Positions 6,003 to 24,916 of a DNA stretch of 64,000 nt are shown piece after piece. The position numbers and the translations under genes were made by a program. The notes under the pieces were generated by a model that saw nothing but the letters and a program-made list of their open reading frames with translations, was not told the origin of the DNA and made no database searches. Location of the stretch: positions 9,273-73,272 of the forward strand of contig JAMCUI010000004.1 of the NCBI GenBank assembly GCA_023379265.1, read 5' to 3'. This stretch comes from Patescibacteria group bacterium. Lineage in GTDB: Bacteria > Patescibacteriota > Microgenomatia > 2-02-FULL-39-11. Within the stretch, counting starts at the first letter, position 1, and each line of letters begins with the position of its first letter.

Positions 6003-7396
6003 AAACTGTCCAAGATTCTTTGCAGTTTAATACTCACCTCCTCATCCTTTGCCGGATTTTGGGAAGAAAGGTCGCCTAATTCTTTTTTATCAGATCCTAA
6101 ATTATAAAGTTCATTTATATTAGTCTCCAAATCAGTAATAATTTTCCATCCGTCAGAAGTGATAAACGCCCTCTTAAATACCGCATAGCGATAATCTGTT
6201 TCGGAAAAAGCATCAAGATTCATCTTGCCGCCCTCCATAGCCGGAATTAGACTCACTCCTTGCATTTGTTTTTTTAATACATCATCGGGTGCAATATCCA
6301 ATACCGACAAAACTGTAGGCATGACATCTATACTACTAACTAAACTGTTAATTTTTACTCCGGAACTCATCCCGGGTACTGAAATTATTAAAGGCACATG
6401 AATAAGCTCCTGATAAAGGCTGTGGCCGTGGTCTATCTGCCCGTGGTCATACAATTCCTCGCCATGACCTGAGGTAAAAACAAAGATTGTTTTATCCATT
6501 AAACCCAATTTTTTGTATTCAGATAGAAATTTGGCGAGTTCTGTATCAGCACGCTGTAATTTCTCATCATATATCGCATTTAGAAATCTGACATCGTCCT
6601 TTGAAAGAAAAAGCTTTCCCTGGGCTAGACCGCTCTCACGAAGCTGAACCTCCTCATCTTTTGATCCCGTCAACTTACCTTTATAGGGAAAATCCAAAAA
6701 ACGGAAGTCATAACCGCCTTGGGGAACATATTCGCCATGGGTATCATAACCCTGAAGAAAGACAAAGAACTTATTTTCCTTGTGTGCTTTTATCCAATCG
6801 ATAGCCTTGGGATAGGTATATGGCAACCCGGCAAAATCCTTATCGTCAACATAGGTATCAAAACCAGCGCTGTAACCAAATTCACGGTTTACCGCAGCGC
6901 TTCCGGTAAATCCGCCTGTAGCATAACCGTTTTTCTTCAGAAATTCGGCAAAAGTAACAATGTCAGGCGCAAGCACCTTAAGATTGGAAATAATCTGAGA
7001 TCCCGGTGACAGAAGAGTGTATTTATTCAAAACTTTGTGTCTGGATGGATAAACTCCAGTCAACAAACTCATGTCAGCAGGAAGAGTCCAGGATGAAGCA
7101 CTGATATCGTTTGTAAAAGCGAAACCATGTGAGGCTAAAGAATCAATCGTAGGAGTAGTATCACGCATATACCCATATGAGTGGATATGATCCGCGCGAA
7201 GCGGATCCAAGACGATAAGCACTATATTACAATCACGGCAGGATATATCCGAAGGGTAATTTACTAACCTTGATTCATTTTTTCCCGAATGAAATACGGT
7301 GCTATAGATTACTGCTCCAGCAAGTATTAAAATTATAAAAGCAGCGATAATAACAAATTTATATTTCAAAGCGACACTGTCAAACCGCATCAGCAT
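5999..7396 (-). CDS. sulfatase-like / LtaS-family alkaline-phosphatase-superfamily enzyme, membrane anchored
   Basis: N-terminal TM segment. Motifs CNIVLIVLDPLRADH and SGHGEELYDHGQIDHGHSLYQELIHVPLII are typical of the sulfatase / phosphoglycerol-transferase fold. Confidence 0.7.
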   Translation of the reverse strand: MLMRFDSVALKYKFVIIAAFIILILAGAVIYSTVFHSGKNESRLVNYPSDISCRDCNIVLIVLDPLRADHIHSYGYMRDTTPTIDSLASHGFAFTNDISASSWTLPADMSLLTGVYPSRHKVLNKYTLLSPGSQIISNLKVLAPDIVTFAEFLKKNGYATGGFTGSAAVNREFGYSAGFDTYVDDKDFAGLPYTYPKAIDWIKAHKENKFFVFLQGYDTHGEYVPQGGYDFRFLDFPYKGKLTGSKDEEVQLRESGLAQGKLFLSKDDVRFLNAIYDEKLQRADTELAKFLSEYKKLGLMDKTIFVFTSGHGEELYDHGQIDHGHSLYQELIHVPLIISVPGMSSGVKINSLVSSIDVMPTVLSVLDIAPDDVLKKQMQGVSLIPAMEGGKMNLDAFSETDYRYAVFKRAFITSDGWKIITDLETNINELYNLGSDKKELGDLSSQNPAKDEEVSIKLQRILDSF

Positions 7397-7420
7397 ATAA
7401 AATTATTTTAGCATTATTTT

Positions 7421-8032
7421 ATGTCCATCAAACATCCAAGGAAAAAAACAACACCGCTTATTTTTCTTCTGTTCCTTGTTTTCTTTGCTTTATCCGCTTT
7501 TATTGTCACAATAATTTCACACTGCCAAAAAATTCAGTGTATTTCCATGGCTGATCTTCCTAAATACTCCCTGAAAGAAATCTACCAGAATACCAACAAT
7601 ATATACCGCGCGCTTTATACAAATGACAAGGATATACTTCGCGTCGAGATTAGGTCTGGAATAAACGAAACGGAAGCGCAAAAATCTATCGACGCACAAA
7701 CTGCCAGGATGGAAGCTCTTTTTGCCGATGCCACCTCGCCCTATCCCGGAGACATAACAAACGAGATAAGCTGCAACAGCAAATTCAAGCCGAAAATGGC
7801 AATAGAGAACATAAACGGAATAAGAATCACCCACTTTACAGGATACCTGAACAACAGGCTGACGTTTGGCGCATGTACAGATGACCAAGCTGTTAATAAA
7901 GGAATTGAAGCGTTATTTTATTGTTCTAGTCAACGAAAACTTTACCAAACAGAGATTATCGCTCCTACAAGTAAATTCAACTCAAATGAAAATTTCTATA
8001 ATGGAGTATTACATTCAATACGTTGTAAATGA
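7421..8032 (+). CDS. hypothetical membrane-anchored Cys-rich protein
   Basis: ORF with an N-terminal TM (LIFLLFLVFFALSAFIVTII). No recognisable motif. Confidence 0.45.
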   Translation: MSIKHPRKKTTPLIFLLFLVFFALSAFIVTIISHCQKIQCISMADLPKYSLKEIYQNTNNIYRALYTNDKDILRVEIRSGINETEAQKSIDAQTARMEALFADATSPYPGDITNEISCNSKFKPKMAIENINGIRITHFTGYLNNRLTFGACTDDQAVNKGIEALFYCSSQRKLYQTEIIAPTSKFNSNENFYNGVLHSIRCK

Positions 8033-8035
8033 TTC

Positions 8036-9604
8036 CTAAAAATATCCTGTTTTTATAAGTTTTTTTCTTTCCTCTTGATCCACCCATGCCGGAAACGGTT
8101 GGTTATCTTTCTGCTCATACACCGGTTGTTTATCAAGTATGGTATTTAATTTATTTTCCATTGAGGCAGCTATTCCTGGGTATTCGAAAATAACATTTTT
8201 TGTCTCATTATAATCATTATCCAGATTGTATAATTCACGCATTATATTGCCATTGAAATTCTGATTTATTATCAGCTTCCAATCCTTAGTCAAAATAGCC
8301 TGTTTACCTATCTGTAAACGTTGAGTAACAACATATTTATTCTCATAGGTAGAAAATAGATCATTCCCCTGAAATTGTGCGGGTGTGCTTATGCCCAAAA
8401 TATGAAATAATGAAGGAGCAATATCAATACTCTCTGCCAGTTTACCAATCACCTGTGGTTTTGCCCCCGGTATGTACATAATCAATGGTACATGAATCTC
8501 TTCGTTATATAAATCTGCACCGTGAGACCAATTACCGTGTTCCTGAAATTCTTCACCATGGTCAGCAGTGATTATGACTACAGTATTTTTCAGGAAATTT
8601 TTATCCTTAAGATATTGGAAAAACTTTTTCAGTTCAAAATCCAACTCATAAATTCTAGCCTCATAAAATGCTTGAATATACTTTCTTCTTTCATCTAGGG
8701 GGATATTTGAAAAAGCACTCATATAACTATCTACCCTTTCATCAAAAAACTGTGCGGTTTCAGCATATGATGACGAGTCGATATACTTTTGCGTATACAA
8801 TGTGAGAACATTACAATAATCTCCAGACGGATTTCCTTTTGGTATTAAATTTTTAATTCTATCAGGGTGTAGATTCATTAATTCTTCATAAGTCTTTTTA
8901 CATAAATCATTATATGAAATATAAGCAGTGGCGGGACCGTTATAAAATTTCTTAATGTCCTCTTTTTTGGGAATATATGGTATGTGTACCCAATATGAAT
9001 GAAGAAGAGCAAAGAATTTTTGGTCTCCTTTTATATCCTTATTCATATCAGCCATCCATGTTTGAGGGTCATCGGCAGATTCAATAAGTTTAAATCCTCT
9101 TCCCAATCCGCGATCCAATGGTTGGTTAATATCTCCTATGGAACTGGCATACATTGTCAGGTAACCGTTTTTTTGGAGTATCTGCGTCAATGTTACGATC
9201 TGGTTGCTTAAATTACTCACTAACGGAATAATCATTTTATGAGAAGATGGTAATAGGGAAGTGAAAATGGAAAATCGGTTATCCAAAGTATATGAACTCT
9301 GACTGTATGAATTTTTAAAAAGGAATGATTTGCTAGCAAAATCACAAAGGTTGGGAGCAGTATTTTTAATATACCCGTAGCAGGGTAGACTCTTGGCCCG
9401 CAGTGGAACGATGGTCATTAGTATCACGTTACAATCCTTACAGAAACCTTCTGGCAGTATATTTCTTTTTAAAAGATCAATTCCAAATATAGTCTTCAGG
9501 AAAAAAAATTGAAAAGCGGCAAATACCAGAATAAACGCAATAAAAGAAAAACCGACAATATATTTTTTACGGTGTTGTAACATTTTCCACTCAGTTAAAA
9601 ACAT
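8036..9604 (-). CDS. sulfatase-like / LtaS-family alkaline-phosphatase-superfamily enzyme (paralog of 5999..7396)
   Basis: N-terminal TM. Motifs CNVILMTIVPLRA and ITADHGEEFQEHGNWSHGADLYNEEIHVPLIMYIPG. Confidence 0.7.
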   Translation of the reverse strand: MFLTEWKMLQHRKKYIVGFSFIAFILVFAAFQFFFLKTIFGIDLLKRNILPEGFCKDCNVILMTIVPLRAKSLPCYGYIKNTAPNLCDFASKSFLFKNSYSQSSYTLDNRFSIFTSLLPSSHKMIIPLVSNLSNQIVTLTQILQKNGYLTMYASSIGDINQPLDRGLGRGFKLIESADDPQTWMADMNKDIKGDQKFFALLHSYWVHIPYIPKKEDIKKFYNGPATAYISYNDLCKKTYEELMNLHPDRIKNLIPKGNPSGDYCNVLTLYTQKYIDSSSYAETAQFFDERVDSYMSAFSNIPLDERRKYIQAFYEARIYELDFELKKFFQYLKDKNFLKNTVVIITADHGEEFQEHGNWSHGADLYNEEIHVPLIMYIPGAKPQVIGKLAESIDIAPSLFHILGISTPAQFQGNDLFSTYENKYVVTQRLQIGKQAILTKDWKLIINQNFNGNIMRELYNLDNDYNETKNVIFEYPGIAASMENKLNTILDKQPVYEQKDNQPFPAWVDQEERKKLIKTGYF

Positions 9605-11588
9605 CCAGAGGTTTTCCCTGAACGAAATCAGGTATTTTTACTTTAAGGGCTTTCATGATAGTCGGGTACTGGTCAATCTGAACTGCCGGCGTATCACCCA
9701 AAAAGTTGTTTTTCTTTATCCCCGGGCCGGCTATGATAAACGGGGTCCACATCCCCGGATCGTCCTTTGCCAGGATGGCCTGTTTATATCCGGTAATCAA
9801 TGGGGAAGTGAAAACCTTCAAATCGTTTGACATCTCTTCATTCCAACCATAACCCGGGGCATTGGCTATCACCAAATCACCAATTCTTGAAGGATCAAGC
9901 TGCATAAATCTTTTGGCATCCTCCCACTTCACCACCTCTGCCACCGGCTTACTGCCGTCTTCATCCTTCAAGTTTTCCAAAGCGTCGATCACCTGGTTTC
10001 GCAGATATTCATACTCCGGACCGGAGGCACGGTGATAGTCTCCGGCCAAACCGTTGGGGTTTATATAAACATGCGCCATTTTAAGATAAATCACTTTTGA
10101 GTTTTTCCAGTCGATATTCGGTTCTCCTGTTTTGGGATCAATGGTGAATTTCAACCAGCCTTTCTGGGCAAAAAGGTTATTCAGATTCACGTTCCGGTTC
10201 AAGGGTACGGCACCATGGTCGGAACTGAAAACGATAACCGTATTTTTGCCGGAGACTTTTAAGATTTCACCGACTATATTATCCAGCTTCTTGTACATAC
10301 CCCGCACTTCACCCCAAAGCTTTTCCCTTTCCTTATCGGAAATGTCTTTATAATGTATGCTTTTGGGGTCAACATAACCCATCCACCAGCGGCTGGTAAG
10401 CATCTGGTTGGGGGTATAAATGTCCTGAATGACGACATTTGGCGAAAAGTCCTTCACCATGGCGCTTACTGCTTTTGTATGCCACTCAAACGACATATCA
10501 GCCTCATCCATAAATGTCTTTTTATCCTCAGGGTAGTATACCAACTGGGCCGGGAAATTATCGGCAAAATCGATCATAGGACCAACTGAATTCTCCATCG
10601 CACTTGCTGCCTCTGGAGGCTGGGCAATATACTGGTTCAAGTTGTCATAGTCTATCCTGATCCTGAAAAATTTATCGCTTCCCAGTTTTATTACAGTCGC
10701 CTTAAAATGCGTATCAACCGGAATGTCCTTATCGGTGGTAACCCAATGTAAAGTAATGGGAAGCCACCCAGACCATTTGCCGGGTGTCAAATCCGCCAGA
10801 ACATCTTTCTTATCCAGGGAAAAGAGAACATGATCATAGTCCGTTTTACCATTATCCGTCGAATCATAAACGAAAGCGTAAACGGGAGTACCCCAACCAT
10901 CCATTTTCACCTCATAAGGAGGTGAGAAACTTTTGGGAGTATTAACCCACCCTGAAGGAGAAACAGAATCGATGTATTTAGTCAACTCAGCACCAAAGAA
11001 AAAAAGGTGGACCGCCCGGCCCTGTAGAACTCTCTGAAGGAGATTCCCCTTTGTCTCAAAGTTTATGGCATTAAAATCTGCACCCCAACCTCCCCATCTT
11101 CCTCTTATTACTACCCCTTTTTGGATCTCAGGAGGAGTAGATCCGGGAACTGATAATACCGCAACTTTCATACCGGCATCCTCAAGTGTCTTCCAAATTG
11201 CCGGCACCTTTCTGGCAACCGACCTGAAACCGCCTACTGCTACCTTATCAAGAGGACTGCCAATGGCATGCATGGGGCCGTCATCCACACCATTCACCTC
11301 GGGATAGGCACCCGTGAGAAGTGCGGCAAAATTGACGGGAGTATGGGAAGGAAAAGTGGGAAACGAATATCCATAAGAACCCATCTCCATCAACTTTTTA
11401 ATATTGGGAAGCTTACCTTCCTTGGCCCATTTATAGATATTAAATAGTCCCGGCTCGGCACGGACACCATCCGGAATAAACCAGTAAAGCTTGAGAGTGT
11501 TTTGAGGCTGAGTTTTTGGAGAAATAACCTTTGATACACCAAAAATAATAAGAATCAATAAGATAATAACTGCGGCTGTCTTCTTCAT
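9591..11588 (-). CDS. type I phosphodiesterase / nucleotide pyrophosphatase (NPP) family protein, alkaline-phosphatase superfamily; secreted or anchored
   Basis: Signal/anchor MKKTAAVIILLILIIFGV. Motifs LYWFIPDGVRAEP ... FPTFPSHTPVNFAALLTG ... VIVFSSDHGA. Confidence 0.65.
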   Translation of the reverse strand: MKKTAAVIILLILIIFGVSKVISPKTQPQNTLKLYWFIPDGVRAEPGLFNIYKWAKEGKLPNIKKLMEMGSYGYSFPTFPSHTPVNFAALLTGAYPEVNGVDDGPMHAIGSPLDKVAVGGFRSVARKVPAIWKTLEDAGMKVAVLSVPGSTPPEIQKGVVIRGRWGGWGADFNAINFETKGNLLQRVLQGRAVHLFFFGAELTKYIDSVSPSGWVNTPKSFSPPYEVKMDGWGTPVYAFVYDSTDNGKTDYDHVLFSLDKKDVLADLTPGKWSGWLPITLHWVTTDKDIPVDTHFKATVIKLGSDKFFRIRIDYDNLNQYIAQPPEAASAMENSVGPMIDFADNFPAQLVYYPEDKKTFMDEADMSFEWHTKAVSAMVKDFSPNVVIQDIYTPNQMLTSRWWMGYVDPKSIHYKDISDKEREKLWGEVRGMYKKLDNIVGEILKVSGKNTVIVFSSDHGAVPLNRNVNLNNLFAQKGWLKFTIDPKTGEPNIDWKNSKVIYLKMAHVYINPNGLAGDYHRASGPEYEYLRNQVIDALENLKDEDGSKPVAEVVKWEDAKRFMQLDPSRIGDLVIANAPGYGWNEEMSNDLKVFTSPLITGYKQAILAKDDPGMWTPFIIAGPGIKKNNFLGDTPAVQIDQYPTIMKALKVKIPDFVQGKPLDVFN

Positions 11589-11665
11589 CTTTACTATTTA
11601 CCAAAGCATAAGATTTTATTCCGATAAATGTCAAGACGAAAAAAGAGGCATATAACAAGAGCCAA

Positions 11666-11690
11666 AATTTATCGGCAAGCCTTGCCGCCT
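11666..11690. terminator. short hairpin (cggcaa-gcc-ttgccg) between the pilin block and the NPP gene; weak terminator candidate
   Basis: Inverted repeat followed by a T-rich run on the + strand and by ATAAATTTT on the - strand. Confidence 0.3.
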
Positions 11691-11698
11691 TTTCATTT

Positions 11699-12229
11699 CT
11701 ACTGGTAATTCCTCAGAGATATCGTGCTTTGGTATTCCAAAGTATTATAACTACCAGGAGTGGGGGTCAAAGATGTCCCGCTGTAATTTACGGTATAGTT
11801 TATAAAAACATACTTTGGGGAAGTGGGAGGAGTAGGGCAGACTATGCGGAAATTGCATCCTGATACATCAACCTTGGAACTGGTCAGGGATACCATTCCT
11901 GTTGGGGTAGGATTCGGCCAGGCGGAAATAGAAGATATTTGATTTCCGCTGCTACAGTCAAACATTGTCGTGTTTCCATCGGGATTCGTAATGGTAAGCT
12001 GGCTGGTGTTTGAATTACATTGTATTTGCTGTATGTCTACAGCATTCCTTACCATAGATTCCATCACCGACATTGCAAAATCACCGTTTTGTTTAATTTC
12101 CTTCAGAGTCTCGCTTCTTGTCTGGGATTTTATTCCCAAAATAAATATCTGGGTGGTAATGATACCGATTATCCCAACCAAAGTGGTAACTATCAAAAGC
12201 TCTATCAGTGTAAAACCATTTTCTCTCAT
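11699..12229 (-). CDS. type IV pilin / pseudopilin with prepilin-type N-terminal cleavage/methylation domain
   Basis: N-terminus MRENGFTLIELLIVTTLVGIIGI has the G|FTLIE prepilin motif followed by a hydrophobic helix. Confidence 0.75.
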   Translation of the reverse strand: MRENGFTLIELLIVTTLVGIIGIITTQIFILGIKSQTRSETLKEIKQNGDFAMSVMESMVRNAVDIQQIQCNSNTSQLTITNPDGNTTMFDCSSGNQISSISAWPNPTPTGMVSLTSSKVDVSGCNFRIVCPTPPTSPKYVFINYTVNYSGTSLTPTPGSYNTLEYQSTISLRNYQ

Positions 12230-12258
12230 AATTATCTTATTTTCATATATTCTTTATC

Positions 12259-12762
12259 TTAATTCCAATTAGTCAAACATGACGATATGTCCACTTCAGG
12301 AGCTGGGGTTACACCCACAGCTCCTTTAGACCATTCCACTTTTGCCGTAATCTTATACGCCACGGGAGTGGGAGTTATTGTTGCTACCGGTAACGGACAG
12401 TCAGCGGGATTAGAACCGGAAATTTGAAGCGATTGGCCATAAGTTCCTGTCGGTGTAACCGGAACCGGAGTAAGGCCGCTGTTTATGTAGCAAGAGGAAA
12501 AACAGTTAGTAGTGAGAGAGCCCAGTCCGCCCGAATCCCGTATCACTCTTGCACGCTCGATCTGTTGGTTGGCAAGATTGGTAGCGATGCTCTTATTTTC
12601 CGAAAAGATAGAATTTCGTATGGCATATAGTTCAATAGCTGTAATACCGGACATAAACAGTATGATAAGAGTCAGCGCTACCAATACTTCAATCAGTGTT
12701 TGACCGCGTGTTATCAGACCTGCCGAGTCGGAAGCAACTCCTGTGCTAACATCAATGATCAT
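12259..12762 (-). CDS. pilin-like protein with an extended leader (MIIDVSTGVASDSAGLITRG|QTLIEVLVAL)
   Basis: G-QTLIE variant of the prepilin motif plus a hydrophobic helix. Its 5' end lies inside the 78-bp tandem repeat. Confidence 0.6.
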   Translation of the reverse strand: MIIDVSTGVASDSAGLITRGQTLIEVLVALTLIILFMSGITAIELYAIRNSIFSENKSIATNLANQQIERARVIRDSGGLGSLTTNCFSSCYINSGLTPVPVTPTGTYGQSLQISGSNPADCPLPVATITPTPVAYKITAKVEWSKGAVGVTPAPEVDISSCLTNWN

Positions 12763-12975
12763 AAACTTTAATATCTAAGGACACGGTGTTATCAGACCTG
12801 CCGAGTCGGAAGCAACTCCTGTGCTAACATCAATGATCATAAACTTTAATATCTAAGGACACGGTGTTATCAGACCTGCCGAGTCGGAAGCAACTCCTGT
12901 GCTAACATCAATGATCATAAACTTTAATATCTAAGGACACGGTGTTATCAGACCTGCCGAGTCGGAAGCAACTCC
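12709..12975. repeat. 78-bp tandem repeat, about 3.4 identical copies, spanning the junction of two pilin genes
   Basis: Unit starts at 12709, 12787, 12865 and 12943. Each unit carries, on the - strand, TAG, a 12-nt spacer and ATG with 20 further codons, giving the mini-ORF MIIDVSTGVASDSAGLITPCP*. Confidence 0.9.
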
Positions 12976-13527
12976 GGCAGAATTTATACTAATTCTGTAA
13001 TACCCGTCAGCCGGGGCATTTTTATTACTCATACAAATTACCGCCGGCTGACTTACTGTCCCAGAGTTTTCGGTAAACAATATCCTTGCTGTATCAGGCG
13101 GTGTAATATAAGGCGTCACTAAAACATCCTTGGAGAAAGTAAAATTTTGTGTAGAAAACTGGCTGCTACCACACTTGCCATATATTTGTTTATTTGTAAA
13201 GTCGACATACCACCCGTCCCATCCTGTTGAAGAGTCAGGAGAGCAATTGCATACGCTGCAGTCTATCTCACCATTATATGACCTGCTTTGGGCATCCCTC
13301 AAAATGTTTTTCATATTCTGACCTGCGGAAATGACCGTCTGTTTCTGGTTTAGTGTGGCATAGCCGGCAAAACTTACACCCAAAAGAAGAAATATGACCG
13401 TGACAACCACCAGGATCTCAATGAGGGTAAAACCACTCAACAGTTGTGAGTTGTTCCGCCGCTTGCGTGATCCCGCTGAGGCGGGATGAGTTGTAAGTTG
13501 TGAGTTATTTTTTATTTTTTGAGTCAT
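12931..13527 (-). CDS. type IV pilin-like protein with a long leader (…NNSQLLSG|FTLIEILVVV)
   Basis: Prepilin motif and hydrophobic helix. The C-terminus ...SAGVASDSAGLITPCP* is part of the 78-bp repeat. Confidence 0.75.
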   Translation of the reverse strand: MTQKIKNNSQLTTHPASAGSRKRRNNSQLLSGFTLIEILVVVTVIFLLLGVSFAGYATLNQKQTVISAGQNMKNILRDAQSRSYNGEIDCSVCNCSPDSSTGWDGWYVDFTNKQIYGKCGSSQFSTQNFTFSKDVLVTPYITPPDTARILFTENSGTVSQPAVICMSNKNAPADGYYRISINSAGVASDSAGLITPCP

Positions 13528-13573
13528 TTTATAAACTATTAACTAACAACCAACAACTTACAACCCAACCAAA

Positions 13574-14089
13574 TTAAGGATTTGTCACCTGATAATTACA
13601 ATTACTGCCACATAAAGTGCCCCCGGAATCGTTACAATAGGCACTTGAGGCACCGGTACTGCCGTTTTCCAAATGTGCACACAAATCGTAGTGCAATGAG
13701 TCAGTCTGGAGGTAATAATAAGCAAATGCAGGCGATTTGGGATCGGAAGGATACTTCGCTATATAACTGCTGTCCAGACTCGGTATGCCTGTAGTAGTAG
13801 GCAAGGGATAAGATGAATTTTCGGACTTATAGATCTCAAGGGCGGAGCGCACCTGTTCCAGATCGGATTTGCGCAAAGCATCCCGGCCGTTTCTTGTCAT
13901 GGCTTGATATCCGGTCACGCCGATTGTAGACAAAAGGGCAACAATTGTAGCTGCCACCAGAATCTCAATAAGTGTAAAACCGAACATCGGTTGTAAGTGG
14001 TGGGTGGTGGGCCCGCCGGCCGGCTCGTCTCGCGGTGAAGCGGGCGAGGCAGTTTGCGGGTAAACTCTGTTTGATTTGTTCTTTGACAT
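13574..14089 (-). CDS. type IV pilin-like protein (…MFG|FTLIEILVAATIV)
   Basis: Prepilin motif. I trimmed the start to Met9 of the track ORF so that it does not overlap the upstream stop at 14092-14094. The true start is uncertain. Confidence 0.65.
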   Translation of the reverse strand: MSKNKSNRVYPQTASPASPRDEPAGGPTTHHLQPMFGFTLIEILVAATIVALLSTIGVTGYQAMTRNGRDALRKSDLEQVRSALEIYKSENSSYPLPTTTGIPSLDSSYIAKYPSDPKSPAFAYYYLQTDSLHYDLCAHLENGSTGASSAYCNDSGGTLCGSNCNYQVTNP

Positions 14090-14091
14090 GT

Positions 14092-14580
14092 TTACTGCTG
14101 ATTTGAAACGCAAAAATAATTTGGGGACTCAGACTCAAGTCCTGTGCAGACGGTATAGGATGAGGTAGTACAGTTTGAAGCGCCGGGAGTCGGCCCACAG
14201 TAATATGGAGTCCCCTGGGGGTCAACCGGAACAGCGGGCATAATGCTTATCGGTGGAGTGGGACAATTTATAGCAGTAAAAAAGCTGTTTCCGCCTCCGG
14301 CAGGAGTGATATAAGCATAACCGCAAACGGAATAATACTGCTCCAGTGCAGATTGAACTTCCTTAATATCACTTTTTCTTTTGGCATCCCGTCCTTTTTT
14401 CTGGGCGCTTGAGAAGGATGTCAGGCCCATGGCGATAAGTACCGTAATTATGGAAATAACAACCAACAACTCAAGCAGGGTAAAACCATAGTTATCGTTA
14501 TGGATAGATTTCGATTTATAGTCTGAGACTGTTAATCTACCAAAGATTTGAGATTTGAGATTTGAGATTTGAGATTTCAT
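14092..14580 (-). CDS. type IV pilin-like protein (MKSQISNLKSQIFGRLTVSDYKSKSIHNDNYG|FTLLELLVV)
   Basis: Prepilin motif. The start is taken at the ATG immediately after the upstream gene's stop; ATG 14592 is an alternative. The leader contains a heptanucleotide repeat. Confidence 0.65.
   Translation of the reverse strand: MKSQISNLKSQIFGRLTVSDYKSKSIHNDNYGFTLLELLVVISIITVLIAMGLTSFSSAQKKGRDAKRKSDIKEVQSALEQYYSVCGYAYITPAGGGNSFFTAINCPTPPISIMPAVPVDPQGTPYYCGPTPGASNCTTSSYTVCTGLESESPNYFCVSNQQ
14545..14577. repeat. heptanucleotide simple-sequence repeat (GATTTGA)x4.7 on the + strand, equal to (TCTCAAA)n on the coding strand, in the first codons of a pilin gene
   Basis: gatttgagatttgagatttgagatttgagattt read directly from the sequence. 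Confidence 0.9.
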
Positions 14581-14581
14581 A

Positions 14582-15064
14582 TTAAGGTTCATGTATAGTA
14601 TAACTGTTTCCGGTACTAGTATTGCAAGGAGAAACAGGAGTGAGGTCTTTATCCGGATCCACAGCATTCTCAAGACAGGCAGAAAGAGCATATTGTGACG
14701 TACTGCCGGGATTATATATATAAGGTGTGCCTGTCAGGCTTCCCGGATCGCACGGAACTTTTCGCAAGTAAATATTTCCGCTACAGTTGGAGCTTGAAGA
14801 CCAGCACTGTCCGCATATGGAAGCCGGAAATGCGCCCGTTGTGGGATATCGCTGATATTGATCATTTAATTTATATAGTTCGAGGGCTTTTTGGATATTT
14901 GATAAATCACCTTTCCTTTCAGTGTCTCTAGCCCTTTCACGGGCTCCCATGAAATTGGGAAAGAGTACAGCAATTACCATGGAAATTATAGCTATCACCA
15001 CAAGAAGCTCGATAAGGGTAAAACCTGAATTCAGTTGTGAGTTGTTTTTTATTTTATTTATCAT
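14582..15064 (-). CDS. type IV pilin (MINKIKNNSQLNSG|FTLIELLVVIAIISMVIAVLF)
   Basis: Canonical prepilin leader and cleavage motif. C-terminal Cys pair. Confidence 0.85.
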   Translation of the reverse strand: MINKIKNNSQLNSGFTLIELLVVIAIISMVIAVLFPNFMGARERARDTERKGDLSNIQKALELYKLNDQYQRYPTTGAFPASICGQCWSSSSNCSGNIYLRKVPCDPGSLTGTPYIYNPGSTSQYALSACLENAVDPDKDLTPVSPCNTSTGNSYTIHEP

Positions 15065-15107
15065 GTCGTGAAACTGGCTACCTGCTACTTTCTACATATT
15101 ACATAAA

Positions 15108-15617
15108 TCACGGCGTAATATTTGGACTTGAAATTCCATAGTTGTAATACACTGAGCCACCAACTGGACAGGCGACTGTCGGTATAATTTGGGAGTCTTC
15201 CTGGTTCTCCAAATGGGCATACAGCTTGTAATAAGTGCCGGACGCATCAGACGAATAACAATAAGCATATCCCGGGGAAGCCGGATCCTGGGGGAGTTTC
15301 TGCATATACACTACAGATGAGTTACCGGGATTTGACAAAGGTGACCCCCAGGCGGGAAACTGTGTTTCGTTGGGATAAGACCTCATATCATTATAATAAA
15401 GCTCAAGAGACTTGGAGGTAAGTGAAAGATCCTGTTTTCGCCTGGCATCTCTACCTTTTATGATAGAAGTGAAGAAATTTCCCCAAAGAGCACCACTGAC
15501 AATTGCTATAATTGCCATAGCTATAATAAGTTCCAGGAGTGAAAAACCTGACAGATAAATTTTATTTTTTTCCTTCCTGTTTATCCTAACCGTCTTCAAT
15601 TTTTCTCTTGTGACCAT
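15108..15617 (-). CDS. type IV pilin-like protein (…KIYLSG|FSLLELIIAMAIIAIV)
   Basis: Prepilin motif and hydrophobic helix. Confidence 0.75.
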   Translation of the reverse strand: MVTREKLKTVRINRKEKNKIYLSGFSLLELIIAMAIIAIVSGALWGNFFTSIIKGRDARRKQDLSLTSKSLELYYNDMRSYPNETQFPAWGSPLSNPGNSSVVYMQKLPQDPASPGYAYCYSSDASGTYYKLYAHLENQEDSQIIPTVACPVGGSVYYNYGISSPNITP

Positions 15618-15665
15618 TTTTATGAAACTAACTCTTAAACACTCATTTTTGGCTGCAAAAAATAT

Positions 15666-16436
15666 TCAAAACCCCATAAATTTTATGGAAAAAGACCATA
15701 TGCTATATCCGAATAGAAGAGAAACATAAGTGGCTGCCGCAAGAAAAGGACCAAAAGGTATAGTGCTTTTCATTTTTTTCTTACCCTTTATTACCAGTAT
15801 CAGGGAAAAGACCGCTCCTGTCAAGAAAGCCAGGTAAAAAGAAACTATGACAGCAGGGTAACCGAGCACAAGTCCCATGGCAAAAGCAAACTTCACGTCT
15901 CCCAACCCCATACCTTTACCTTTAGTGGCAACAGTCAGAAGGAGGAAAATCAAAAAAGCCGCCAAAGCGGAAAAGAAATTGTTTAAGAACTGGTTGATAT
16001 CAAAAAAAAATAGATATAAAAAACCTGATATCACCATCAGAAGTACTATCTGATCAGGAATTATCCTGTATTTAAGGTCCGCACCAAAAACCACAATCAG
16101 ACATCCTGTGAGCAACAACCAATATAAAAACTGGAAATCGCTTACCCCAATATTCTGAGAAAAAAGTACATACGCCGTAAAAGAAAGGAAAAATCCAGTG
16201 AAGATTTCCGATAGGGGATACTGCCTTGATATTTTTTTACCGCAATATCTGCATTTTGCGCTAAGAGCAACAAAGGAAAATACTGGAATAAGATCGTACC
16301 ATGCCAATTTGTGCCGGCAAAAGTCGCAATGCGACCTTCCTGAAATCACATTTTCACCTTTAGGCAACCGGTCAATAAGCACATTCAGGAAAGAACCAAT
16401 GAACAGTCCAGCGATAAAAATAATGAGTATCATCAT
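15666..16436 (-). CDS. pilD: prepilin peptidase (A24 family)
   Basis: N-terminal LIDRLP plus CDFC...CRYC zinc motif and polytopic membrane domains. Confidence 0.85.
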   Translation of the reverse strand: MMILIIFIAGLFIGSFLNVLIDRLPKGENVISGRSHCDFCRHKLAWYDLIPVFSFVALSAKCRYCGKKISRQYPLSEIFTGFFLSFTAYVLFSQNIGVSDFQFLYWLLLTGCLIVVFGADLKYRIIPDQIVLLMVISGFLYLFFFDINQFLNNFFSALAAFLIFLLLTVATKGKGMGLGDVKFAFAMGLVLGYPAVIVSFYLAFLTGAVFSLILVIKGKKKMKSTIPFGPFLAAATYVSLLFGYSIWSFSIKFMGF

Positions 16437-17788
16437 TTTTCTCTATATTTATTTTTTTTATTTCCCGCCTCCGACGCCATCCATAAAATAATCATATCAG
16501 TAACAAAATAGGATTCGTTTATGAATGTATAGCGGAATAAAATATAAAAAACCGAATAAAAAATTGCGACGGACAATAAAACAGCCGTCAAAATTTCATC
16601 ATTTTTTTTATATCCGGCAATTGCCGCATATAAGTTTTTTACCAAGAAGACCAATACCGCTAAAACAACGATTATCGTCACGAAAAACGGAATATCCCGG
16701 TTATAAAAAACGTTGTATAAGGCGTTCAGGCTCATTGCCCTGGGATATGGTATCCACCAATTCTGCTTGTTTGAATAAAAAAATCCGCCGATAGTCTGGA
16801 TAAAGAAAATTTTCGGGTCGGCAATAAAAAATGGAGAAACCGTAACTAAAATGACGGCTACAGAAGCATAAAAAAACTTTTTCACTTTCTTAAAGAGAGG
16901 GAATAAAAAAGGGTAAAGCACAACATAAACAGGTTTTATTCCAACCAACAACCCGAATATTAAACCGCCAAAAATCGTCTTATCAATCCTCCTGGAGCTA
17001 AACTTTTGCGAAAGAATATAAAAAGTAAGAACCAAAAAGAAGAATTCCATTTCCACGAGCCATGACTGCTCGACAATAAAAAGGGAATTTGGCCTGAATA
17101 GATAAATTAACGACAATGATTCAGAAACAATACTTCTTCCACCAATAAGATAAATCAGCAAGGCACTGCCTATTTCTAAAATGGCAAAAAGCAATCTGGG
17201 ATCGCCAAAAAGGGCAACAAACGGAATCTGAAGGAGAAATGACACCGGCCAGTAAGCAAAATAATTGCTGGGTACTCCGGCATACACTTGGGAGTAATGC
17301 GTATTGTAAGGATTTAGGCCTGAAAGTACTTTCATCGGGGCTTCCTTTAATATAGTAAACACATCTATAGTAGGAGATGGAGATGCTATAATTATCAAAA
17401 TCCTAAAAGCCAACGCGGCCAAAAGCAGGAAAACATACCGTAATCTCCTGTCTTTTGCCTGAAAATTATATTGAGGAACAATATAGGACAAAATGACAGG
17501 GAATATGAAAAGGGGCAAAAACTGAAGAATGGCCGATGAAATAAAATCCGTCTGATAAATTCCGCCCGAAAAAAACATAAATAATGAATATGAGACAACA
17601 AGAGAATAAAGCGCTAACGTTTCAGAATTTGATACATCCTTATTGATTTTATTTCTGTAAAAATAGACTATAAAAAGGAGAAATAAAACTGAGACGGCAA
17701 TTAAAATTCCGGCAAAACTCAAGAAACCTCTGTTAAAAGTAGTGACTATTATGGATAAAAAGACAATAATAAAGCTTAGGTTTGCCAT
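16433..17788 (-). CDS. polytopic membrane protein, possible GT-C-type glycosyltransferase
   Basis: About 12 predicted TM helices. No soluble-domain motif recognised. Start codon overlaps pilD (ATGA). Confidence 0.45.
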   Translation of the reverse strand: MANLSFIIVFLSIIVTTFNRGFLSFAGILIAVSVLFLLFIVYFYRNKINKDVSNSETLALYSLVVSYSLFMFFSGGIYQTDFISSAILQFLPLFIFPVILSYIVPQYNFQAKDRRLRYVFLLLAALAFRILIIIASPSPTIDVFTILKEAPMKVLSGLNPYNTHYSQVYAGVPSNYFAYWPVSFLLQIPFVALFGDPRLLFAILEIGSALLIYLIGGRSIVSESLSLIYLFRPNSLFIVEQSWLVEMEFFFLVLTFYILSQKFSSRRIDKTIFGGLIFGLLVGIKPVYVVLYPFLFPLFKKVKKFFYASVAVILVTVSPFFIADPKIFFIQTIGGFFYSNKQNWWIPYPRAMSLNALYNVFYNRDIPFFVTIIVVLAVLVFLVKNLYAAIAGYKKNDEILTAVLLSVAIFYSVFYILFRYTFINESYFVTDMIILWMASEAGNKKNKYREK

Positions 17789-20066
17789 AGGATTAGTTTA
17801 TCACAATATCCTTCTTCTACTCATCCCTGCGTTATTGATTTCATTTTTTTTCTTCAGGCTTTTCTTTCCCAATCCCTCACTCTTTATGATCCCGGATTTT
17901 GGCGAGAGCGACGTGTTACATCTTAACCTGCCACTAAAATTTATCCTTTCTCAATCGTTAAGAAGCAAAAACTGGCCTTTATGGACTCCTTATCTTGGTG
18001 GTGGATTTCCAATCCTTGCGGAAGGACAAATAGGGACCTTCTATCTGCCGAATCTGATCTCTTTCCGGTTTCTCCCGTTTATTACAGCATACAATCTAAA
18101 TCTTCTCTTTGCGTACGTTCTAATCTTTGCCGGTTCATTTTTATTCTTCAGGATTTTAAATTTATCAAAAACCGCCTCAATTGCCGCCGCTACAGTTTTT
18201 ACCTTTTCAGGATATTTATCAGTCCACCTCAACCATTTTGATCTCATCCAGGCAGCCTCACTGCTCCCCCTTATCTATTGGTCCGTAGTAAGGCTTTGGA
18301 AGAAAAAACACAACCTGCAATCAATAATTCTGACTTCATTCCTGCTTTCCCAACAGATATTTACGGGTCATTTTTATATTGTATTTATCACCCTTATTGG
18401 GGCAGCAATGATATTTCTCATGTTATATATATTTGATAGAAAAAATACGTCTATATCTCATTTCCTCTATAAATCGGGACTATTCTTATCGGCACTTCTT
18501 TTAACCTTTTTACTCTCAGCAATCCAGCTTTTCCCGACAATTGAACTCTGGAAACAATCAACAAGAAAAGCCGGCCTGGATTATAATACGGTGACGGCTT
18601 ATCCCTTTTCTTTCAAAGAGTTTGTCACCTTTCTCAAACCATATTTTTTTGGCAGCCCCGCAAACGGCACTTATCCTCAGTTTAGCAACGATTGGGGTGT
18701 TTTTTGGGAAAATACGGGATATATAGGAATAATTCCTCTTACCATGGCCCTTGCCTGCCTGCTGTTTTTCAGGGATAAAAGGGTAAGAATCGCCGCTGTA
18801 ATGTTATTTTTTTCCCTACTTCTTGTTTTGGGAAAAAATTCCCCATTATATTTCGTTTTTTCCTTTCCACCTTTTTCTTTTTTCCGCGTGCCTTCAAAAT
18901 TTCTCCTCTTAACTGATTTTTCGCTCGCTTTTCTGGTAGCAATTTTGCTGCATAAGACTTTAGAAAGCATAAGAGGTGTATATAAAAAATCTGCTTTATA
19001 TAAAACCAAGCTTATAACTGTACTTTTCCTACTTTGCTTACTGGCAGGGGGAATAGTAGGGGACGAGTATCACTTCTCATATTCATACCCGCCGACAACA
19101 CCAGCCAATTGGTGGACAACCCCCCCGGAAACCGCAAAACTATTACAGGCTCAACCAAAGGGCGGAGTCACTGATATCGGATCCAGAATCGCCTGGAATG
19201 AAATTTTTCTCACACATGGATGGGATGATATAAAACTTTTCTCCTACCTGAGAAATTATATTTATCCAAACTATAACTCACTATTTTCCCTAAAGGGATT
19301 TGATGTAAACACAGGAGGTCTAGTACCCATAAGGCAGAAACTGTTTATTTCCGCAGGCCAGCAATGGGATACCAAAAATAATATCGCTACAGTTAGCGCT
19401 GTGGCTAAAAATATCTTATCGCTTGCTGGAATACGCTATGTCTTGTCTCCTTATCGGCTGGACGGGATAAAAACTGAAATTGTCGATACGGTCAGATTTC
19501 CCGCAAAAAAAATCAGGCCTATCAGTATCTACAAAAATATATCAGCCTTGCCAAATGCTTATATGTCTTATAAAACCAAATTCATCTCCACTCTTGACGA
19601 GTTCTTCAACGCTTTGGAAAATCATAAGATTTTAACAGACAGGACTGTTCTAATAGAAAATAAACATTTAGCGGTAAATAATAACCCTGAAACCTTAAAT
19701 AATGTCAAGCTTATAAAATCACACGATAATCAAAATATTTGGAAAGTTTATACTGAAAACAAAGGTATTTTTGTCATTTCAGACACTTATTATCCGGGCT
19801 GGTCTGCAAATGTGGACGGAAAAAGCGTTCAAATAGCACCAGTAAACCTGACCCAACGGGGAATACCTTTGGAAATGGGAGAGCACACCGTAATTTTAAG
19901 ATATGAACCATTATCGTTTGCGCTGGGCAAATATACCACTTACGCGACAATGGTCATAATTGTTTCAGTTCTACTTGTTTCCCTCTCGATTTCTCATCAT
20001 AAAGTTTACGGTAAAACTCAGCCTTACCCTTATCCTGGAAACAAACGGCATAATTTATCGACATAA
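17742..20066 (+). CDS. YfhO-like large membrane protein (putative GT-C glycosyltransferase)
   Basis: 774 aa. N-terminal polytopic domain and C-terminal extracytoplasmic domain, the YfhO-family architecture. Assignment is by architecture only. Confidence 0.5.
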   Translation: MTIMDKKTIIKLRFAIGLVYHNILLLLIPALLISFFFFRLFFPNPSLFMIPDFGESDVLHLNLPLKFILSQSLRSKNWPLWTPYLGGGFPILAEGQIGTFYLPNLISFRFLPFITAYNLNLLFAYVLIFAGSFLFFRILNLSKTASIAAATVFTFSGYLSVHLNHFDLIQAASLLPLIYWSVVRLWKKKHNLQSIILTSFLLSQQIFTGHFYIVFITLIGAAMIFLMLYIFDRKNTSISHFLYKSGLFLSALLLTFLLSAIQLFPTIELWKQSTRKAGLDYNTVTAYPFSFKEFVTFLKPYFFGSPANGTYPQFSNDWGVFWENTGYIGIIPLTMALACLLFFRDKRVRIAAVMLFFSLLLVLGKNSPLYFVFSFPPFSFFRVPSKFLLLTDFSLAFLVAILLHKTLESIRGVYKKSALYKTKLITVLFLLCLLAGGIVGDEYHFSYSYPPTTPANWWTTPPETAKLLQAQPKGGVTDIGSRIAWNEIFLTHGWDDIKLFSYLRNYIYPNYNSLFSLKGFDVNTGGLVPIRQKLFISAGQQWDTKNNIATVSAVAKNILSLAGIRYVLSPYRLDGIKTEIVDTVRFPAKKIRPISIYKNISALPNAYMSYKTKFISTLDEFFNALENHKILTDRTVLIENKHLAVNNNPETLNNVKLIKSHDNQNIWKVYTENKGIFVISDTYYPGWSANVDGKSVQIAPVNLTQRGIPLEMGEHTVILRYEPLSFALGKYTTYATMVIIVSVLLVSLSISHHKVYGKTQPYPYPGNKRHNLST

Positions 20067-21963
20067 GAAAGTAAACTGTCGGGCTATCGGGAGAAATCTT
20101 TTCTGCCGCCTCAATCTGTTTTTTTGCGTCCTGACATCGCTTCTTCTCTATATATACCTGTGTCAGAATGGTATAACTGTCGCTGTCTCCTGGATTTAGA
20201 CTTTCGGCCCGCAAGAGATTCTTTTCCGCATCACCTGAATATCCGTTTTTAGCCTCCCAGAAGCCTGTTTCCTGACGCGCGGTAGAATAAATTGACAGGT
20301 TATCTGACAAAAGGAGGTTCTGGAAATGGGAAAGGCTGCCGGATAGTGGATCATGATAAATACTCCATAGTTTTTCGTTTTCTTTATGGATAAATTCTTT
20401 TTGGGGAACATCACCTTTTTCATAATATCTGAAAACTAAACCCCAGGGTATCCAAACTCCCTCCGTATTACCAAAAGCAAGTTTGCTGAAAACGGGAAAC
20501 TTACCATAGTTGTCCTTTACAAACGACTTAAACAGGAATACTGTGTCATCCGAATTTTGAGGTAAAGTCAAATCAGGATAACTCCTTTTCAGTTGGTCAA
20601 AATAGTAAGGAGTGCCGAATTTCCCCAGATGTATAAGTTTTACATCCGGCCGTATTTTCTGAGTGTAGTAGACATACTGTGTGTTGAAAAGGGGTGTGTC
20701 CGTGGAAATGACAAAAACACTGTTTTTGGGCAGGCTGGACAAAATATCATAAGCCAGGTTTTCTGCAGTAAAATCATCCCTGAGAATAGTGATTTTGGGA
20801 TAATTTATAAGAAAAATACCTACCGGATAAATAATAAACATAAGAACAAAAAGGCTTAAAACCGTATTACTCTTGGCTGAGGAAAACAAACGGGCAAGGA
20901 GCACCTTCATAAACAAATAAAGCTGTAACAGACCAAAGACGGTAAAAAAAGATAAAAGTATATAAAGCGGCTGGACAAAACGCTCAAAAGTACCAACCAG
21001 AAAATTCCCCACAAGTGGAAAAGAGGCATAAAAAATAAAAAAGAGATAAGAAACGGTCGAAAAAAGTAGCATAAAGAATACATCTCTTTTTTTCCTGAAT
21101 AAATAGAAAGATCCGGCAAGAATTAAAATTATCCCAAGAACACGGAAATCGTTAAAGACGAAATTAAATGCCGCCCAGACGTCTAAAGCCCGAAGCGCCG
21201 GTTCCATCATCACAAACGACCCGACCTTAAATGTCCCGTAGCCGGCGCGACTCACAAGCGCAACTACGTTTGAAGGCGTTACCTGACCTTGCCAGTTTAG
21301 AGGTGAATAAGATAATGAAGGAAGCAGAATATATATGTATGGCAAAAGGCCCGCGATAAAAAGAAATATAGATTTTATCAGTAAAGTCTTTCGAAATAGT
21401 CTTTTGTTTTTCCAAAAGAGCCATAAAAGGCCTGGTAAAACGAAAATAATTATCTGGTGGTGGGTAAAAGACAATCCAAGGAAGAATGAGAAGAGATAGA
21501 TATATTTGCTCCTTTTTTCTTTTGTAAACCGCAGAGCCGCCCAAAAAAGCAATATTATAAATAAATTGTTCAGCGCAAACACTTCCACTACTTCGCTATA
21601 GAGCCATACCGGATAAAGAAAGGCATAAGAAAAAACGCTTAAAAGGGGAATAAAAACTGATCCTCCCGTCAGAATATAAAAAATATCAAAAAGAAAAAGC
21701 AGGGAAATAAGCGAAGGAATACTGGATAAAAACCCCACTTTCCAAGCGGCAGTACCTCCCGTAACAAACTTTAGAATTAAAATTCCAAGAGAAGTATAAA
21801 GAGGATAACCCGGCGGATGGGGAATACCTGCTGTCACAATGGCGGAGACCAGATCACCTGCATCTCCGCCATAGATTGTCTTTAATTGATAATATAAGTA
21901 TAGGCTACCGCATATAAAAAATATACTCAGTAGCCCGAGAAAATATCTTTTTTCTTTTACCAC
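19954..21963 (-). CDS. DUF2723 (TMEM260-like) membrane glycosyltransferase-like protein with C-terminal TPR repeats
   Basis: N-terminal GGDAGDLVSAIVTAGIPHPPGYPLYT matches the DUF2723 signature. Many TM helices. The C-terminus carries TPR-like repeats. Confidence 0.6.
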   Translation of the reverse strand: MVKEKRYFLGLLSIFFICGSLYLYYQLKTIYGGDAGDLVSAIVTAGIPHPPGYPLYTSLGILILKFVTGGTAAWKVGFLSSIPSLISLLFLFDIFYILTGGSVFIPLLSVFSYAFLYPVWLYSEVVEVFALNNLFIILLFWAALRFTKEKRSKYIYLFSFFLGLSFTHHQIIIFVLPGLLWLFWKNKRLFRKTLLIKSIFLFIAGLLPYIYILLPSLSYSPLNWQGQVTPSNVVALVSRAGYGTFKVGSFVMMEPALRALDVWAAFNFVFNDFRVLGIILILAGSFYLFRKKRDVFFMLLFSTVSYLFFIFYASFPLVGNFLVGTFERFVQPLYILLSFFTVFGLLQLYLFMKVLLARLFSSAKSNTVLSLFVLMFIIYPVGIFLINYPKITILRDDFTAENLAYDILSSLPKNSVFVISTDTPLFNTQYVYYTQKIRPDVKLIHLGKFGTPYYFDQLKRSYPDLTLPQNSDDTVFLFKSFVKDNYGKFPVFSKLAFGNTEGVWIPWGLVFRYYEKGDVPQKEFIHKENEKLWSIYHDPLSGSLSHFQNLLLSDNLSIYSTARQETGFWEAKNGYSGDAEKNLLRAESLNPGDSDSYTILTQVYIEKKRCQDAKKQIEAAEKISPDSPTVYFLMSINYAVCFQDKGKAEFYRKLYDEKSRGKQVELKQL

Positions 21964-22016: not shown

Positions 22017-22571
22017 TTATTTAATACACCAGTAACAGGCAGTACCCGTCGAAGTTACGGAGAGACAATTTGCTCCCGTTGATCCATCACTATTATATTT
22101 TGCGTTCGCATCATTCCCGAAAGATTTCGACTGAGGAAGGAAACATACGGTCACATTTTGTGTAACTCCGTTTACATCAGCTGTAGACGTCATGTATATT
22201 TTGCCCAAATTGCCCGATCCGGCCAACTGGATAAACTCGGGTTTCAATTCTCCTGCACTTATTATCTGGTTCAGGTAGCCGTTTGGAGCACTAGTCATAT
22301 TCGTATTGGACAGTTGCATAGCATTGACATCAGTCGTCCACGGCCAGACATTCTTGACTGAATAATACCTGATAGCGGAATTATAAACCTCCTCAGCTGT
22401 ATTTCTGGTAGAAGTATCGGTTCCTTTCTTTAACTGCTCAAATGGGTCAACTGTCGCCAGAAGACCTACGGCTAAAGCTCCCAAAAGAGCTATAACGATA
22501 AGAAGCTCAATAAGCGTAAAACCTTTACTTAGAGATGAACGGACAGTTTTAATTTTCAATTCAATTTTCAC
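22017..22571 (-). CDS. type IV pilin, candidate major pilin
   Basis: …SLSKG|FTLIELLIVIALLGALAVGLLA. Located directly downstream of pilB-pilT-pilC. Confidence 0.8.
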   Translation of the reverse strand: MKIELKIKTVRSSLSKGFTLIELLIVIALLGALAVGLLATVDPFEQLKKGTDTSTRNTAEEVYNSAIRYYSVKNVWPWTTDVNAMQLSNTNMTSAPNGYLNQIISAGELKPEFIQLAGSGNLGKIYMTSTADVNGVTQNVTVCFLPQSKSFGNDANAKYNSDGSTGANCLSVTSTGTACYWCIK

Positions 22572-22621
22572 CCCCTCCAGAAAAATAAAGGATTTTTATC
22601 CGAATCAATAATATCTTTTAA

Positions 22622-23824: not shown

Positions 23825-23840
23825 AATTAGTGTTTGATCA

Positions 23841-24908: not shown

Positions 24909-24916
24909 AATAATCT

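Follow-up and report, generated by a model that had tools for sequence, protein, structure and literature searches.

In Neisseria, the (CTCTT)n tract of Opa and the poly-G tract of PilC are placed in signal-peptide coding regions, and their ON/OFF switching has been shown experimentally, while the STRR sequences of cyanobacteria are short tandem arrays of 7-nucleotide (nt) units typical of the lineage. To our knowledge, nearly all contingency loci driven by repeats come from host-adapted pathogens such as Neisseria, Haemophilus, Campylobacter and Escherichia coli K1. The Patescibacteria are tiny, mostly uncultured bacteria and are thought to need type IV pili for attachment to host cells and for DNA uptake. 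In E. coli K1 the neuO gene, which encodes the O-acetyltransferase of prophage CUS-3, contains an (AAGACTC)n tract of 3-53 units in its 5' coding region and is OFF in 42 of 64 complete genomes (PMC13001214). Haemophilus influenzae has heptanucleotide repeats at the hmw1A and hmw2A promoters and the heptamer AACAACC at a TonB-dependent receptor gene, the latter ranging from 1 to 7 units between strains (PMC2651432), and the Beggiatoaceae have intergenic heptamer tandem repeats with the unit TAACTGA (PMC4679880). The element described here is a 34-nt heptanucleotide tract in the leader-coding part of a type IV prepilin-like gene, found in a 64,000-nt stretch of DNA from a Patescibacteria group bacterium (assembly GCA_023379265.1, contig JAMCUI010000004.1, positions 9,273 to 73,272 of the forward strand) that is termed the window and supplies the coordinates used throughout. 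The tract is assigned a probability of about 55% of working as a slippage-driven contingency element.

The tract and the gene that contains it are defined by the following features.

14544 to 14577, minus strand: heptanucleotide tract, perfect (AAATCTC)x4 plus AAATCT, 34 nt, encoding KSQISNLKSQI of the prepilin leader
14092 to 14580, minus strand: type IV prepilin-like gene, 162 amino acids, matching Pfam N_methyl (E=1.6e-7, 31 bits against a cut-off of 21.2)
14578 to 14580, minus strand: ATG start of the repeat-bearing prepilin gene, 1 nt behind the TAA stop of the upstream gene (14582-14584)
14533 to 14543, minus strand: stop codons in both shifted frames within TTTGGTAGATTAA (TGG TAG and GAT TAA), which end translation 2-4 codons past an out-of-frame tract

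Read on the coding (minus) strand, the tract begins directly behind the ATG with four AAATCTC units, followed by AAATCT and then TTGG, and Tandem Repeats Finder reports 14544-14577 as a period-7 repeat of 4.9 copies with 100% matches. Only two perfect short repeats are present in the window (periods 2-12, at least 2.8 copies and at least 14 nt), both of period 7, the other being (AATTGAG)x2.9 (x3.6 when imperfect copies are included) at 45466-45490 on the plus strand. An order-3 Markov model gives an expectation of 0.01 period-7 tracts per 64 kb, and the tract is real and far from chance expectation. The same 34 nt are found unchanged in the public assembly GCA_023487465.1, where the exact protein is also present (contig JAMDBJ010000009.1, "Patescibacteria group bacterium"), as it is in one other contig. 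A sequence-only reading of the window had described a heptamer repeat behind the ATG of a pilin gene, encoding KSQISNLKSQI before the cleavage site G/FTLLE (the slash marking the cleaved bond), and Tandem Repeats Finder and translation confirm this; of the span it gave, 14545-14592, the repeat itself holds (at 14544-14577) and the rest consists of the ATG at 14580-14578 and a second in-frame ATG upstream at 14592-14590.

In the encoded prepilin a leader of 32 residues precedes the cleavage site, and the mature part, 130 residues long, carries the family motif KRKSD...LEQYYSVCG. The leader reads MKSQISNLKSQIFGRLTVSDYKSKSIHNDNYG/FTLLELLVV..., and the residues around the cleavage site are those of a class III signal peptide, which combines Gly at -1 with Phe at +1 and has Glu at +5 ahead of a hydrophobic helix (G/FTLLELLVVISIITVLIAMG). 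Its 330 homologs belong to Gottesmanbacteria or Patescibacteria where named. The product of 14092-14580 is predicted from these features to be type IV prepilin-like, to lose its leader by cleavage and to assemble into a pilus.

The consequences of a change in copy number are illustrated by modeled alleles with varied numbers of full units, each translated from the ATG at 14580. Full-length prepilin results from 1, 4 or 7 full units, alleles with 0, 2, 3, 5, 6, 8 or 9 units end after 6-27 residues, and the gain or loss of one unit leaves a protein truncated after 9-16 residues. With a 7-nt unit, which is not a multiple of 3, a single-unit change thus shifts the frame and truncates the product, so the frameshift by single-unit slippage predicted in the sequence-only reading is borne out by the model. 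Translation must read through the tract, since the stretch from there to the cleavage site offers no in-frame ATG, GTG or TTG. In the mechanism proposed here, the slippage-prone repeat is located in the part of the prepilin that would be cut off by the prepilin peptidase (encoded at 15666-16436), so that the repeat-encoded peptide could vary freely with the mature pilin unchanged. Slipped-strand mispairing that gains or loses one or two units would shift the frame and end translation within a few codons (OFF), 1, 4 and 7 units would correspond to ON, and a three-unit change would do no more than make the leader seven residues longer or shorter. The OFF state would probably also lower translation of the four downstream pilin genes because the genes are tightly packed, with stop-to-start spacings of 1-3 nt.

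Orthologs were collected from metagenome contigs with a motif in the mature part of the protein (KRKxD-x7-LEQYYx[VI]C), a choice that is unbiased regarding the 5' end, and the scan gives 68 orthologous loci of which 62 are non-identical. In the ortholog itself the 150 nt upstream of the cleavage site contain a period-7 repeat in 15 of the 62 loci and a period-8 repeat in two, with no other repeat period in the 5' regions of these 62. The sequence-only reading had counted orthologs that lack the repeat, along with a uniform copy number in all reads, as grounds against its switch; ortholog repeats are in fact found at the same position, all with period 7 or 8. Of all 238 prepilin-like genes at these loci, 43 show a perfect repeat in the 160 nt ahead of the cleavage site, 36 of period 7 and seven of period 8, and no other period, including 3, 6 and 9, is present. 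The pilin 5' windows comprise 8.9% of the 410 kb covered by these loci yet contain 34 of the 38 period-7/8 tracts (at least 2.8 copies), compared with four in the other DNA of the same loci, intergenic DNA included. The distant control consists of 80 loci from a protein-alignment scan (other lineages of the candidate phyla radiation (CPR), Planctomycetota and others), with generic pilins whose best match is 38% identical and no orthologs among them; here a 5' tract occurs in two of 128 prepilin-like genes. The pattern is specific to this Gottesmanbacteria-like lineage, to pilin 5' ends and to non-triplet periods.

The repeat units are mutually unrelated, with AAATCTC, AAAGATC, AACAAAG, AATTTTC, AAAGTTC, AAAAGTC, CATGTTT, TCAGCGT and others represented, which makes a conserved binding motif unlikely, and a conserved protein- or RNA-binding motif is rejected as the main explanation on this ground. 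The N termini of 120 homologs show that many leaders are periodic at seven residues, for example MKYQISNIKYQIF, MKIQNSKFKIQNG, MKDQRSKIKDQRSNSG and MINKFQISNFKFQINK, the signature expected of 7-nt DNA repeats read in three frames. Autocorrelation at lag 7 is 0.389 for the leaders and 0.335 for leaders that have no perfect tract, against a baseline of ~0.29-0.31, and the mature pilin regions show codon periodicity only. The residual lag-7 signal in leaders with no perfect tract would indicate that tracts are born and decay.

Differences in copy number are apparent between close relatives. Within one 90%-identity protein cluster the gene starts with ATG(AAAGATC)x5 in locus L002 and with ATG(AAAGATC)x2 in L003-L005, and these loci share the junction with the upstream gene (...SYTIHEP and stop, TAA-T-ATG) and have mature proteins that are 96.9% identical; the variation in copy number anticipated in the sequence-only reading is therefore seen as a difference of three units (5 versus 2). 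The five-unit AAAGATC tract in assembly GCA_040960175.1 and a double tract in L106 are among the longer tracts of related populations. At the protein level, P0009 (MKYQISNIKYQIF...) and P0003 (MKYQIF...) differ by seven leader residues, equal to three AAATATC units. Unrelated leaders are also found on mature parts that are 95-98% identical, the leaders turning over much faster than the mature pilin. In one orthologous pair (L122 2131-2228 and L103 557-644) the flanks are 99.1-99.7% identical around a leader-coding segment of ~90 nt that cannot be aligned, and the L103 leader resembles the leaders of neighboring paralogs (...KNLLSVICYLLSEKG), a likeness that suggests an exchange of leader cassettes between paralogs by gene conversion. 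Paralogs in one genome often share a unit, TCAGCGT being present in three L152 genes and AAAGATC in two L002 genes. Unrelated heptamer and, less often, octamer tracts would on this mechanism arise repeatedly at pilin 5' ends, where they would expand, contract, decay and swap between paralogs.

Contigs of the same organism in the Logan assemblies, which we take to use k=31, all break at the tract in four runs (SRR10278331, SRR10252151, SRR10244963 and SRR10267473). The left contigs end at ATG+30 nt (L161 and L162) or ATG+29 (L163), and the right contigs start with CTCAAATC...AAATCTTTGG (L166), one base earlier (L165), or with exactly 20 nt of the tract (L167). When the k=31 de Bruijn graph is simulated for tract alleles, a 4-unit tract alone produces no break, any allele of at least 5 units produces exactly the observed ends of L161, L162 and L166, and a mixture of 4-unit and 2-unit alleles produces exactly the observed start of L167. 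Because the simulated 4-unit tract does not break, the samples would hold k-mers beyond those that a 4-unit allele can supply, and within this model tract-length heterogeneity in the samples is the simplest reading of the contig breaks. A separate observation concerns L168 (Logan, SRR10267473), in which positions 1-17 are the reverse complement of the ATG and tract start (GAGATTTGAGATTTCAT), fused to a point within the same pilin gene (...AATTACGGTACTT). The fusion is an artefact, chimeric or of the fold-back type, that arose at a microhomology (ATTTC(C)AT), or else it is a rare inversion.

These results make hypermutability of the tracts well supported and selected ON/OFF switching plausible; we infer that slippage occurs at a useful rate in a tract of 4.9 units and that ON/OFF switching is maintained by selection. 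Several observations count against a classical switch. Neither the 43 in-leader tracts nor the 62 non-identical loci of the ortholog include an OFF allele, and all 43 in-leader tracts are in frame in the consensus sequences, compared with about 66% OFF for neuO. For repeats with units of 5-9 nt a cut-off of at least 3 units is commonly used, and the tracts found here are short (median 3.1 units, maximum 5.4) with slippage rates that may be low. The tract in the window, with 4.9 units, is above that cut-off and far shorter than the tracts of neuO (3-53 units, mode 20; PMC13001214). Tract length is kept among some relatives (L093 and L107; P0022, P0109 and L156; the window and GCA_023487465.1), six tracts are located upstream of the start codon (L113, L147, L139), 43 of the 49 tracts of the lineage being inside the translated leader, and five units contain ATG (e.g. 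CAAAATG in L104), which supplies a start in every frame and cannot switch OFF. The 5-unit and 2-unit loci L002 and L003 are only ~88% identical in DNA, and the polymorphism is between related lineages and not within a clone. Regarding the contig breaks, another locus or organism in the same samples with at least 5 AAATCTC units would give the same L161, L162 and L166 boundaries, L163 and L165 each miss the predicted boundary by one base, and the end that a 2-unit allele predicts is not seen in the left contig from the run of L167. The phase-variation switch of the sequence-only reading is partly supported, by its frame logic, the ortholog repeats, the copy-number differences and the contig breaks, with the lack of an OFF allele and the short tracts counting against it.

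Three apparent OFF alleles were considered and rejected. P0061 (L155) is ON, the gene caller having missed the ATG, and P0072 (L006) has a different upstream gene, no in-frame start and an upstream ATG that is one base out, with no link to any heptamer tract. P0045 (L156) has an ATG-to-ATA change at the start with the tract unchanged and is not a repeat-driven OFF allele. In this locus (~190-265; ENA ERZ4903137 k141_84628) an intact (AAATTTC)x4.7 is accompanied by ATA where P0022 and P0109 begin with Met (their ATG being inferred), and if that ATG is right the upstream stop would be TAA in place of an overlapping TGA, which would amount to loss or weakening of the start codon by point mutation.

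Consensus alleles that are all ON would also be expected if the tracts are a tolerated by-product, in which a replication or repair bias of the lineage makes 7-8-nt duplications that survive in the leader or 5' untranslated region and OFF variants are purged with no selected switch. This explanation accommodates the short tracts and the lengths conserved across some relatives, the tracts upstream of the ATG and the units containing ATG, together with the heptamer tracts elsewhere in the window (one within an RluA-like gene, one ahead of dnaB and those that make up an intergenic hairpin). Tolerance alone, however, predicts that periods 3, 6 and 9 dominate, since one 7-nt duplication kills the gene, and these number 0 against 43 of period 7 or 8, while other non-coding DNA in the same loci is almost devoid of such tracts (four versus 34). 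The absence of triplet periods in a coding leader combined with the ~tenfold or greater enrichment at pilin 5' ends makes tolerance alone hard to accept and points to selection for, or very specific generation of, frame-shifting tracts; a by-product is judged unlikely, at something like one chance in four. Considerably less probable is a cis-acting RNA or DNA element, either an A/T-rich tract keeping the initiation region unstructured for re-initiation behind the upstream gene or an array of sites for a genome-specific regulator or small RNA, with copy number tuning expression. Structure prediction leaves the tract region unpaired and with less structure than in shuffled controls (z=+1.3), the AAATCTC unit recurs upstream of dnaB, some tracts are non-coding, and the intergenic heptamer arrays of Beggiatoaceae have a suspected regulatory role (PMC4679880), but the fold z-score is not significant, an unstructured region does not need an exact 7-nt periodicity, the units are unrelated between genomes, and there is no Rfam match (no relevant Rfam family is found within 11500-16500). 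The sharing of units by the L152 and L002 paralogs fits such an element and is equally explained by gene conversion, directly seen between L122 and L103.

A leader hairpin formed by the two roughly inverted heptamer arrays of some paralogs (L122) is rejected, as the L122 z-score of -1.35 is not significant and the window tract, with z=+1.30, is unstructured. An assembly or sequencing artefact that created the tract or its copy number is highly improbable. Several long-period tandem repeats in the window are 100% identical between copies and have copy numbers above those of the sister assembly, which is what an artefact might leave, but the identical 34-nt tract is present in GCA_023487465.1, both tract ends are found in contigs from four independent Logan assemblies, and homologous tracts occur in dozens of unrelated assemblies; with independent assemblies in agreement, this explanation is rejected.

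The arrangement of the pilus locus around the repeat-bearing gene, and the second copy of the heptamer near dnaB, are as follows.

11699 to 15617, minus strand: tandem array of seven prepilin-like genes, the repeat-bearing gene being third, downstream of the prepilin peptidase gene
14582 to 15064, minus strand: upstream pilin-like gene, 160 amino acids, ending ...SYTIHEP and stop, the stop abutting the start of the repeat-bearing gene
15666 to 16436, minus strand: prepilin peptidase, PilD-like, by domain matches (Peptidase_A24 and A24_N_bact)
22017 to 26614, minus strand: type IV pilus machinery, whole stretch, with homologs of PilB, PilT and PilC and a further pilin
24917 to 26614, minus strand: PilB-like ATPase
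23841 to 24908, minus strand: PilT-like ATPase
22622 to 23824, minus strand: PilC-like platform protein
22017 to 22571, minus strand: pilin with a GTG start and a strong ribosome-binding site
52087 to 52110, minus strand: degenerate copy of the AAATCTC heptamer, non-coding, between the stop of an MBL-fold hydrolase gene and dnaB

The locus of the repeat-bearing gene thus also encodes a prepilin peptidase together with pilus assembly machinery (homologs of PilD, PilB, PilT and PilC). Some other leaders of the array retain a degenerate heptamer periodicity, e.g. NNSQLTTH, which corresponds to an AACTNAC-like heptamer by back-translation of the protein only. The stop-to-start layout at 14578-14584 suggests translational coupling of the repeat-bearing gene to the gene upstream. 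The junction at 14581-14612 (AGTTATACTATACATGARCCWTAATATGAAA, with the last codons ...SYTIHEP and stop) is conserved in nucleotides in L002 and L003 despite ~63% protein identity and yields the second in-frame ATG (MNLNM, MNHNM or MSHNM), which hints at a translational-coupling constraint. The pilus locus is broken at 16433-21963 and 5999-11588 by large membrane proteins with TMEM260-like O-mannosyltransferase and YfhO domains, and three genes of the sulfatase/phosphodiesterase family follow it, raising the possibility of pilin glycosylation or modification.

The minus strand at 52087-52110 reads AAATCTC AAATCTC AAAACTC AAACGTC AAAACAG. The degenerate copy that the sequence-only reading had placed between the MBL-hydrolase gene and dnaB, at 52088-52111, is therefore real with a one-base shift in position. 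It is identical in four assemblies and was rejected as a second variable site, being uninformative, and the invariant tract gives the switch reading no support. The gene around the AATTGAG tract (44871-45611, minus strand) is that of an RluA-like pseudouridine synthase, and the tract encodes ...SILNSQF... within it. At 59087-59174 a GTATTAA-like heptamer array is paired with an inverted AATACTT-like one, each of 4.7 copies; together they make a long hairpin in intergenic DNA with a T run behind it, a terminator-like structure made of heptamer repeats.

The window also contains seven long-period tandem repeats (12708-12975, 35415-35629, 50306-50609, 51854-52077, 58289-58464, 58548-58730 and 59277-59626) with units of 42, 73, 73, 76, 77, 78 and 182 nt and copies that are 97-100% identical. 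The 78-nt unit, which extends from the 3' end of one pilin gene into the leader of the following one, has 3.4 copies in the window and 2.4 in GCA_023487465.1, and the 73-nt unit over the dnaB start has 3.1 copies in the window and one in GCA_023487465.1, two Logan assemblies also having one. At 50306 and 58289 the window seems to hold roughly one copy more than GCA_023487465.1, and both the 78-nt and the 73-nt repeat interrupt Logan contigs. The long-period arrays are either genuine variable repeats of the minisatellite type or the result of over-expansion by the assembler. Identity to GCA_023487465.1 (L001) is 99.9% over 11.8 kb (24580-12780) and then ~91% (12897-5841); the drop coincides exactly with the 78-nt repeat, located where the pilin cluster ends distally, and looks like a recombination boundary between sister strains.

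A lineage-wide and highly specific association of non-triplet repeats with pilin leaders would suggest that localized hypermutation varies the main surface organelle in these organisms too. A wider proposal, which we hold tentatively and at somewhat less than even odds, is that Gottesmanbacteria-like Patescibacteria run a multi-gene, phase-variable set of type IV pilins in which independent heptamer or octamer tracts in the leaders of several tandem genes, along with coupling to the genes behind them, would give stochastic switching and a combinatorial pilus composition. Such a set would be the first contingency-locus system described in the CPR and would plausibly serve escape from pilus-specific phages or a change of host attachment. 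Tracts of 7 or 8 nt units between the ATG and the G/F cleavage site would also provide a simple signature for finding variable surface genes in uncultured lineages. Full-text searches of a collection of papers found none linking phase variation or short sequence repeats with the pilins of Patescibacteria or the CPR; the mechanism is known, and no description was found of its placement in a prepilin leader, its recurrence across tandem pilin paralogs or its occurrence in Patescibacteria.

The arrangement resembles that of Opa and PilC in having the repeat in the removable signal sequence of a surface adhesin or pilus protein, where its length affects the frame and not the mature protein. Opa and PilC have a pentamer or homopolymer in a Sec-type signal and much longer tracts, whereas here a heptamer is found in a class III prepilin leader. 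With the Beggiatoaceae arrays and the STRR sequences the locus shares lineage-typical 7-nt arrays, some of them non-coding (the one near dnaB and those that precede the pilin ATG in L113 and L147); those systems use one or a few fixed genome-wide units in intergenic DNA, whereas in this lineage each gene tends to have a unit of its own and a translated leader contains 43 of the 49 tracts. As in H. influenzae, 7-nt units are placed at surface-protein genes with a copy number that varies, some upstream of the start and some in the open reading frame (PMC2651432). The hmw tracts differ in being transcriptional, with 13-38 units, in a host-adapted pathogen and with no pilin leader, compared with the prepilin leader here. 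The tract is like that of neuO in its heptanucleotide unit within the 5' coding part, in giving full length for only one copy-number class modulo 3 and in being read in three frames as a 7-residue peptide repeat (PMC13001214). The neuO enzyme retains its repeat peptide, and the gene is OFF in about two thirds of genomes, whereas in the prepilin the tract has 4.9 units, the known alleles are all ON and the repeat peptide is located in a leader that is predicted to be cleaved.

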